From Candidatus Rokuibacteriota bacterium (lineage in GTDB: Bacteria; Methylomirabilota; Methylomirabilia; Rokubacteriales; CSP1-6), in assembly GCA_016184305.1 (NCBI GenBank), contig JACPCX010000183.1:1-35277 (forward strand): 35,277 bases of DNA, read 5' to 3'. Shown here one piece after another: positions 8,777 through 9,542 of this stretch. The notes beneath the pieces are model-generated. The model worked only from the letters and a program-made list of their open reading frames with translations, searched no databases and was not told the origin of the DNA. The translations under genes and the position numbers were made by a program. Every line of letters starts with the position of its first letter. Within the stretch, counting starts at the first letter, position 1.

Positions 8777-9426
8777 GCCGCGGCCTCGTCGTCGGCCTGC
8801 CAGGTCACGGCGCGCAGGGCAGCCTCGATCTCCTTGCGCGCGCCTTCCTGCGCGTCCCGGCCGCAACGGCGGGCGATCCGGATCGGCTCTCCGAAGCGCA
8901 CCACGCAACGAGAGAATGGCCGTGGGATGCGGAGCTCGTCCCACGAGGGCATGCGCCAGTCGGAGGAAGCGGCGACGGCCAGCGGGACGACGGCGGCCCC
9001 GCTGAGCGCGGCGAGCGTGACGATGCCCGGCTTCACGACCTCGCGCGGTCCCCTCGGTCCGTCCGGAACGACGACGACGCCCCAGCCGGCGCGCAGGGAG
9101 CGCAGGAGCTCTCTGAGCGCCGCGGCGCCGCCCCGACTCGACGAGCCCCTGACCGTCTCGAGCCCGAAGCGCGCCATCAGGCGAGCGATGATCTCGCCGT
9201 CGCGCGAGCGGCTCGCGAGGACCCGGAGGCGATGTCCCCGGTACAGATACGGCAGGAGGAGGATGCGGGAGTGCCAGACCGTGAAGATCAGCGGGGCGCC
9301 GCCCGCCCAGATGGCGGCCACCGCGCCCTCCTCCCGGCGGACGGTGATGGTACGTGCCAGGAGCCTGATCGCCACGGCACCAAGCGCGGGTCCCACCGCG
9401 AGCGACAGCGACGCCGGGACTCTCAT
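8773..9426 (-). CDS. DUF374 lysophospholipid acyltransferase family protein (LpxJ-like lipid A secondary acyltransferase)
   Basis: 217 aa; FTVWHSR, SRSRDGEII, VRGSSSRGG, PDGPRGP, SWDELRIPRPF. Start is ATG 9426 or GTG 9429. Confidence 0.85.
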   Translation of the reverse strand: MRVPASLSLAVGPALGAVAIRLLARTITVRREEGAVAAIWAGGAPLIFTVWHSRILLLPYLYRGHRLRVLASRSRDGEIIARLMARFGLETVRGSSSRGGAAALRELLRSLRAGWGVVVVPDGPRGPREVVKPGIVTLAALSGAAVVPLAVAASSDWRMPSWDELRIPRPFSRCVVRFGEPIRIARRCGRDAQEGARKEIEAALRAVTWQADDEAAA

Positions 9427-9542
9427 CACGCGCGGGTGACCTGGAGCACATCGATCAGGGCCAGGCACAGCGTGGCCCCGTGCAACTCCCCGGAGGCTTC
9501 GCCCGCCGAGAGCATGATCGCCCCGCACTCAGAGCCCGCCAT
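9426..9542 (-). pseudogene. lpxB: Lipid A disaccharide synthase remnant (38 aa)
   Basis: MAGSECGAIMLSAGEASGELHGATLCLALIDVLQVTRA*. Contains the LpxB N-terminal AGExSGDxxG-type signature, sits at the usual lpxB position after lpxI, and has a GAGGG SD. About 90% of a normal ~380-aa gene is absent. Confidence 0.8.

Follow-up and report, generated by a model that had tools for sequence, protein, structure and literature searches.

Xenologous gene displacement is the replacement of an essential gene by a distant, horizontally acquired orthologue, followed by the loss of the resident copy. It has reportedly been described by Koonin and colleagues, and Omelchenko et al. are said to have treated mosaic operons in this light in 2003. 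The window analysed here, a stretch of 35,277 nucleotides from a Candidatus Rokuibacteriota bacterium (contig JACPCX010000183.1), was found to contain a locus of comparable kind. The replacement lpxB, on a second contig (C225), groups with a distant lineage and is an import within the host genome, and the native lpxB was found to be lost from this genome (G000, 88.8% complete) while close relatives keep it. In contrast to displacement in situ, as in a mosaic operon, the imported lpxB is located on C225, away from the native operon. Further differences from xenologous displacement are the origin from a three-gene cassette, the reciprocal scars in both operons and the recurrence in three genera. 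The feature is real and its mechanism is of a known type, here in a recurrent and cassette-borne form.

In the Alphaproteobacteria, an lpxD-fabZ-lpxA-lpxI-lpxB cluster is described in the accessible part of PMC3087551, with lpxI placed between lpxA and lpxB. The cassette shares this ancestry in all three of its genes, whereas it contains neither fabZ nor lpxI and is found in a non-alphaproteobacterial chromosome. In the same part of that paper the lipid A enzyme trees are given as largely consistent with earlier phylogenies, and neither 'horizontal' nor 'lateral' is used. No published report of an lpxB swap or of an lpxD-lpxA-lpxB cassette was found in a literature search made mostly of main texts open without subscription; gene clusters that may bear on this point are tabulated in Additional files 1 and 3 of PMC3087551.

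The 38-codon frame of the window is very likely what an in-frame deletion left of the native lpxB, whose lipid A disaccharide step would be carried out by an intact alphaproteobacterial-type lpxB elsewhere in the genome.

Native lpxB scar

The open reading frame at 9542-9426 on the minus strand, located between lpxI and the DUF374 gene, was translated as MAGSECGAIMLSAGEASGELHGATLCLALIDVLQVTRA followed by a stop codon. Residues 8-31 were found to align, at positions 4-27, to a profile built on the native LpxB proteins of relatives (41 sequences; E 1.9e-11, with the search space set to 1), and no Pfam or NCBIfam match was obtained when the 38-mer was searched alone. An intact lpxB (386 aa) occupies this site in the congener G003, and DNA alignment to it, the comparison with close relatives that the preliminary description had proposed, placed the breakpoints and showed 1,041 nt (347 codons) to be missing. 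Residues 29-31 fit three native places equally (near positions 92, 164 and 369, every option being in frame), so that one or two deletions are possible. In G003 the DUF374 gene directly follows lpxB, the TCATGA overlap ending the scar of the sister species G001 is the same as in G003, and the seven last residues of the scar scored best on the native LpxB C-terminus; the tail is therefore lpxB's own end and derives from no later gene. The LpxB-like mini-gene of the preliminary description was thus confirmed, together with the proposed deletion of at least about 1 kb joining the lpxB start to the lpxB end, whereas the suggested origin of the tail from a later gene was ruled out by the G003 gene order and the C-terminus score.

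The 38-mer contains the first strand-helix and the last residues of LpxB (PF02684, TIGR00215), whereas the two Rossmann domains with the catalytic Asp and Arg are absent, and it probably has no enzyme function. A function of its own would be consistent with the open frame kept in G000 and G001 and with the lack of any indel in the examined runs. However, four of the six changed codons are non-synonymous and the stop has moved, and the scar lineages retain different lpxB pieces, namely the N-terminus in G000 and G001, the C-terminus in G128 and the start only in G009. Such a function is very improbable. The peptide sequence is drifting, with amino-acid changes in 4 of the 38 codons against 100 of 2,439 in the neighbouring genes, an excess that is not significant (p 0.07).

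Native lipid A operon

The genes surrounding the scar and the features of C225 are listed in Table 1. The lpxA, lpxD, lpxK and waaF products exceeded the NCBIfam cut-offs, waaA was found at full length with a score of 405 bits (cut-off 438), and lpxC was also present in G000. Both Pfam domains were found in lpxI. The neighbouring lipid A genes look intact, as had been observed earlier.

Table 1. Coordinates of the scar, of the native lipid A genes in the window and of the imported genes on C225
Feature	Position	Strand	Remarks
native lpxB in-frame deletion scar, 38 codons (native N-terminus + native C-terminal tail)	9426..9542	(-)	no catalytic Asp/Arg
lpxI, UDP-2,3-diacylglucosamine hydrolase	9529..10347	(-)	last 14 nt overlap scar start (ATG); both Pfam domains; start codon chosen by position
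DUF374 acyltransferase-like gene	8773..9426	(-)	ATG overlaps scar stop (TGA); first gene the scar would keep coupled
waaA, Kdo transferase	7475..8776	(-)	downstream of scar
lpxK	6354..7478	(-)	downstream of scar
waaF-type heptosyltransferase II	5344..6351	(-)	start approximate
Gfo/Idh/MocA oxidoreductase, GnnA-like	10326..11345	(-)	likely first step to diamino-sugar lipid A backbone
native lpxA, intact	11354..12178	(-)	imported lpxA on C225 is a stub
native lpxD, intact	12175..13215	(-)	imported lpxD on C225 is a stub
imported lpxB	G000:C225 about 2160-3335	(+)	outside window; full-length LpxB
lpxD stub	C225 1939-2064		N-terminal match to alphaproteobacterial LpxD, best E 3.7e-12
lpxA tail	C225 2064-2131		aligns with the intact lpxA ends of G128 and L185

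In the window, the GnnA-like oxidoreductase gene was found between lpxA and lpxI, and fabZ was absent between lpxD and lpxA. The only PDB match of the oxidoreductase at E<=1e-20 was 7bvj (1.7e-50), its best NCBIfam match was under the cut-off, and no gnnB was assigned among the many DegT matches. Some Alphaproteobacteria combine gnnA/gnnB with lpxB, according to the accessible part of PMC5644692. Since the operon contains a GnnA-like gene, the substrates of the imported LpxB may be diamino-sugar precursors.

Intact lpxB on contig C225

A search of the whole genome with LpxB gave a single match at E<=10 (genome 88.8% complete), which was located on C225 and was found to be a complete lpxB, so that the pathway gap of the preliminary description disappears. 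The protein exceeded the cut-offs of both TIGR00215 (244.6 bits; cut-off 190.25) and PF02684 (304.2 bits; cut-off 22.6). It is a full member of the LpxB family, of which the E. coli enzyme has the structure 5W8S (PMC5785501), with E12, S14, D96 and the GSR motif at 199-201; D96 and R201 align to D98 and R201 of the E. coli enzyme, whose catalytic roles are given in the accessible part of that paper. Between the G000 and G001 copies, 10 synonymous and 8 non-synonymous codon changes were found (p about 0.01 if a neutral share of 0.27 is assumed).

The C225 LpxB was 39% identical to the native LpxB of G003, and its best 80 genome matches were 48-67% identical, almost all of them labelled Alphaproteobacteria or Proteobacteria. 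In the LpxB tree (110 rows, quick method, midpoint root), a native clade and an alphaproteobacterial clade were each found with SH-aLRT 100, and G000, G001 and G128 formed one group (100) inside the Alphaproteobacteria, with G009 apart. L056, labelled Bacteroidota, and L060, labelled Solirubrobacterales, contained alpha-type lpxB within the alphaproteobacterial clade and are likely mislabelled records. By its sequence, the C225 lpxB is an import from Alphaproteobacteria and not a moved native gene. Of the four explanations that had been offered, a relocated lpxB copy came closest: a copy does exist elsewhere, but it is not native, being 39% identical to the G003 protein and up to 67% identical to those of Alphaproteobacteria. 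A relocated native copy was rejected, as the C225 protein groups in the alphaproteobacterial clade.

A recent loss of LPS had also been put forward, as had an unknown disaccharide synthase of non-homologous type and with it a new biochemical route, and the destruction of the native lpxB agrees with either. However, G000 contains an intact LpxB with its catalytic residues, lpxA, lpxC, lpxD, lpxI, lpxK, waaA and waaF are intact, and the scar and the imported lpxB were found together in 4/4 genomes. Both explanations are highly improbable, and with such an LpxB in the genome neither is needed.

In G000 the imported lpxB is immediately followed by a gene roughly 1.1 kb long (L001:2740-3875), which is missing at the G001 site and occupies other positions in G002 and G003. 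A G001 repeat at L042:963-1195, about 220 bp in length, had more than 60 matches across the G000 contigs and looks like a MITE or REP-type element.

Scar and C225 in assembled genomes

The preliminary description had listed an assembly or amplification artefact among its explanations. The 4,001-nt scar region was matched end to end at 97% by G001, in which the scar carries its own substitutions. The stretch was present in 20 public runs from 13 studies, among which no RNA dataset was listed, and in 4/4 examined runs from four studies (X2 from the possible source study and three from separate studies) a single assembled contig, rather than raw reads, bridged the scar with no indel or joint. The contig depths of scar and imported lpxB were alike in the four runs (7.5/7.9, 6.9/9.3, 15/14.1 and 4.9/4.0).

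The flanks of C225 were found to match G003 at about 90%, the C225 layout was repeated on a 23-kb contig in G001, and in X9 one contig runs from the native hydrolase gene into the imported lpxB. The tetranucleotide distance of C225 ranked 45th of 66 among similar-sized contigs, so that its composition is no outlier, and C225 and the window have no overlap and thus no sign of an assembly bubble. Because of the G003-like flanks, the G001 layout, the similar depths and the ordinary composition, C225 with the imported lpxB belongs physically to the G000 genome. A misjoin posing as a deletion, or alphaproteobacterial contamination in the form of C225, could be suspected from the 239 contigs of G000, the length of only 6.4 kb of C225 and the use of assembled contigs rather than raw reads across runs. 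Against a misjoin stand the G001 scar with its own substitutions and the bridging in three studies besides the possible source, and against contamination stand the C225 flanks, the G001 layout, the X9 contig, the tetranucleotide rank and the G128 cassette on an 886-kb contig syntenic with G000. An assembly or binning artefact is exceedingly improbable.

The lpxD-lpxA-lpxB cassette

Upstream of the C225 lpxB, the beginning of an alphaproteobacterial lpxD (about 42 codons) was found, fused out of frame to the last lpxA codons, in a stub of 74 codons that ends on the lpxB start via an ATGA overlap. Being preceded by lpxD and lpxA stubs of alphaproteobacterial type, the C225 lpxB is the survivor of an lpxD-lpxA-lpxB cassette. 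The whole cassette was found in G128, and the metagenome contig L185 contained an lpxA end joined directly to an lpxB of 82% identity. Among 160 lpxB loci, almost all alphaproteobacterial, lpxI adjoined lpxB in 134, 16 were too short (L185 included) and 10 were without an lpx neighbour; lpxA was adjacent to lpxB in none of the 144 sufficiently long loci. The protein database contained a tight clade of 21-22 LpxB proteins or clusters at 74-84% identity. A fusion with a known domain was rejected for the clade member P0127 (598 aa), which contains a C-terminal read-through.

In G128, aroFGH and an OlsC/LpxO-like hydroxylase gene, the latter under both cut-offs, immediately precede the cassette and share its strand (L172:5803-7773); an assignment of aroFGH as kdsA was rejected. 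A sigma-70 scan gave no promoter ahead of the cassette. By eye, a TG-N-TANGAT extended -10-like motif was seen about 140 nt before the lpxD stub (L001:1117-1133), common to G000, G001 and G128. In G128 the cassette lpxB is closely followed by 18 nt that repeat the 3' end of a tRNA-Leu; the tRNA itself is located about 25 kb off and has an integrase next to it. From the tRNA-Leu 3' repeat at L172:11117-11134 to the tRNA at L176:16994, an island of about 25 kb was found to contain the integrase, glycosyltransferases and an ABC transporter. C225 contained no tRNA, integrase or att site. Beyond the G128 repeat, no vehicle for the transfer was found: the best plasmid matches were 42-48%, none being close, and a viral pattern search gave one match without lpx genes.

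Recurrence in the family

An LpxB match was found in 143 of the 159 family genomes, alpha-type (58-100%) in four and native-type (33-45%) in 139. The four alpha-type genomes, G000, G001, G009 and G128, belong to three genera, and native lpxB was missing between lpxI and DUF374 in all of them; kin not being independent, they were counted as three events and not four. Genes co-occurring with lpxB loss had been proposed as a lead, and the imported lpxB was found to accompany the scar in 4/4 genomes. Among 43 native lpxB loci from 40 genomes, both neighbours were adjacent in 38 and one was detected in five. Searches of the class and the phylum, which covered the same 251 genomes, gave no added alpha-type case, and the two extra matches were 37% and 42%.

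Three different in-frame native scars were found in the three genera. The scar of G000 and G001 contains mostly the N-terminus, and that of G128, an indel-rich assembly, contains the C-terminal 23 residues within a 30-codon frame, with about 1,080 nt missing against the intact gene of its congener G122. The scar of G009 contains the start only, assigned by position, in frame into DUF374. The contig with the alpha-type lpxB of G009 is linked to the genome by one adjacent gene, common to five relatives at 73-79%. The only LpxD match of G128 at E<=1e-15 was the cassette copy, the native lpxD being lost: at L173:8520-8760 skp runs straight into lpxA, and the imported lpxD-lpxA-lpxB is whole at L172:7902-11088. 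As the native lpxA remains and the whole cassette is located elsewhere, G128 has two lpxA genes.

No further scar was found in the seven of the 16 genomes without an LpxB match in which lpxI was found: the native lpxB of G174 is frameshifted, the beginning of a native lpxB was found in G110 and in G020, and four reach contig ends. At L177:1-510 in G110, the native lpxB breaks after about 90 codons at a VLL/LID motif and continues in frame into unrelated membrane-protein-like sequence up to the contig end, possibly through misassembly.

Proposed course of events

The best reading of these sequence comparisons is repeated xenologous displacement, then reciprocal decay. An lpxD-lpxA-lpxB cassette of alphaproteobacterial ancestry would first have been inserted elsewhere in the genome, making three lipid A genes redundant, and the pairs would then have been resolved reciprocally by deletion. 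In the end state of G000, the imported lpxD and lpxA are a fused stub and the native lpxB is reduced to 38 codons; G128 has lost its native lpxD and lpxB and contains the entire cassette; and in G009 a separately acquired alpha-type lpxB was found with a third scar. The surviving deletions would leave an uninterrupted frame between the start that overlaps lpxI and the start of DUF374, and in-frame scars likely survive because DUF374-waaA-lpxK-waaF is spared polar effects and translational coupling is kept. The three native scars and the one cassette stub are all open frames that either stop on the next gene or are fused to it, for which the chance under random frames is about 1 in 81, with G128 indel-rich and the G009 start assigned by position. 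The pattern suggests that a deletion ahead of waaA and lpxK survives only if it is non-polar. The imported LpxB would finally use precursors made by the native LpxA, LpxC, LpxD and LpxI.

Instead of separate transfers, a single ancient acquisition by the shared ancestor of G000 and G128, with differential loss afterwards, was considered. The cassette lpxB DNA of the two is 78% identical, near the 72-82% of the shared chromosome and slightly above the 72-76% of the native operon (long blocks), which speaks for a single gain. Against it, the insertion sites differ, the congeners of both genomes (G003; 17 other matches in genus g37) contain native-type lpxB only, none of the 159 genomes contains both lpxB types, and the G009 copy is a separate lineage. 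A single gain is distinctly unlikely.

Selection could add to repeated displacement and reciprocal decay without replacing them, if the cassette spread by remodelling lipid A, in its chain length or in the backbones tolerated, and if the imported LpxB was kept for its better handling of the precursors that result. The imported lpxB was retained in 3/3 lineages, and none of the 159 genomes contained an alpha-type lpxA or cassette 5' region without an alpha-type lpxB (four candidates scored per genome). The hydroxylase gene preceding the G128 cassette (under both cut-offs), the LpxB clade (22 proteins at 74-84% identity) and a cassette order absent from alphaproteobacterial loci (lpxA adjacent in 0/144, lpxI in 134/160) are in line with such a role. 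However, the chain-length-setting genes of the cassette were lost in G000 and G001, so that any acyl change was not kept there, three events going one way have a chance of 1 in 8 under neutrality, and the cases were found through lpxB. Selection of this kind is a tentative addition and rather doubtful. At a similarly low level of confidence, a slimmed alphaproteobacterial lpxD-lpxA-lpxB cassette might circulate across phyla as a lipid A swap module that repeatedly took over essential outer-membrane steps in an uncultured soil and groundwater family, its LpxB always winning and the lipid A change being favoured by selection through phage, predators or membrane physics.

Implications

With the imported lpxB, what looked like a gap in an essential pathway is removed, and the locus is a warning that operon-level annotation can miscall LPS loss. 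A cross-phylum replacement of core lipid A genes is caught here at several stages, as whole cassette, as reciprocal stubs and as lone gene, and the repeated in-frame scars are natural non-polar deletions. The pair of native and imported LpxB offers a direct test of the exchangeability of lipid A enzymes, probably on a diamino-sugar backbone.
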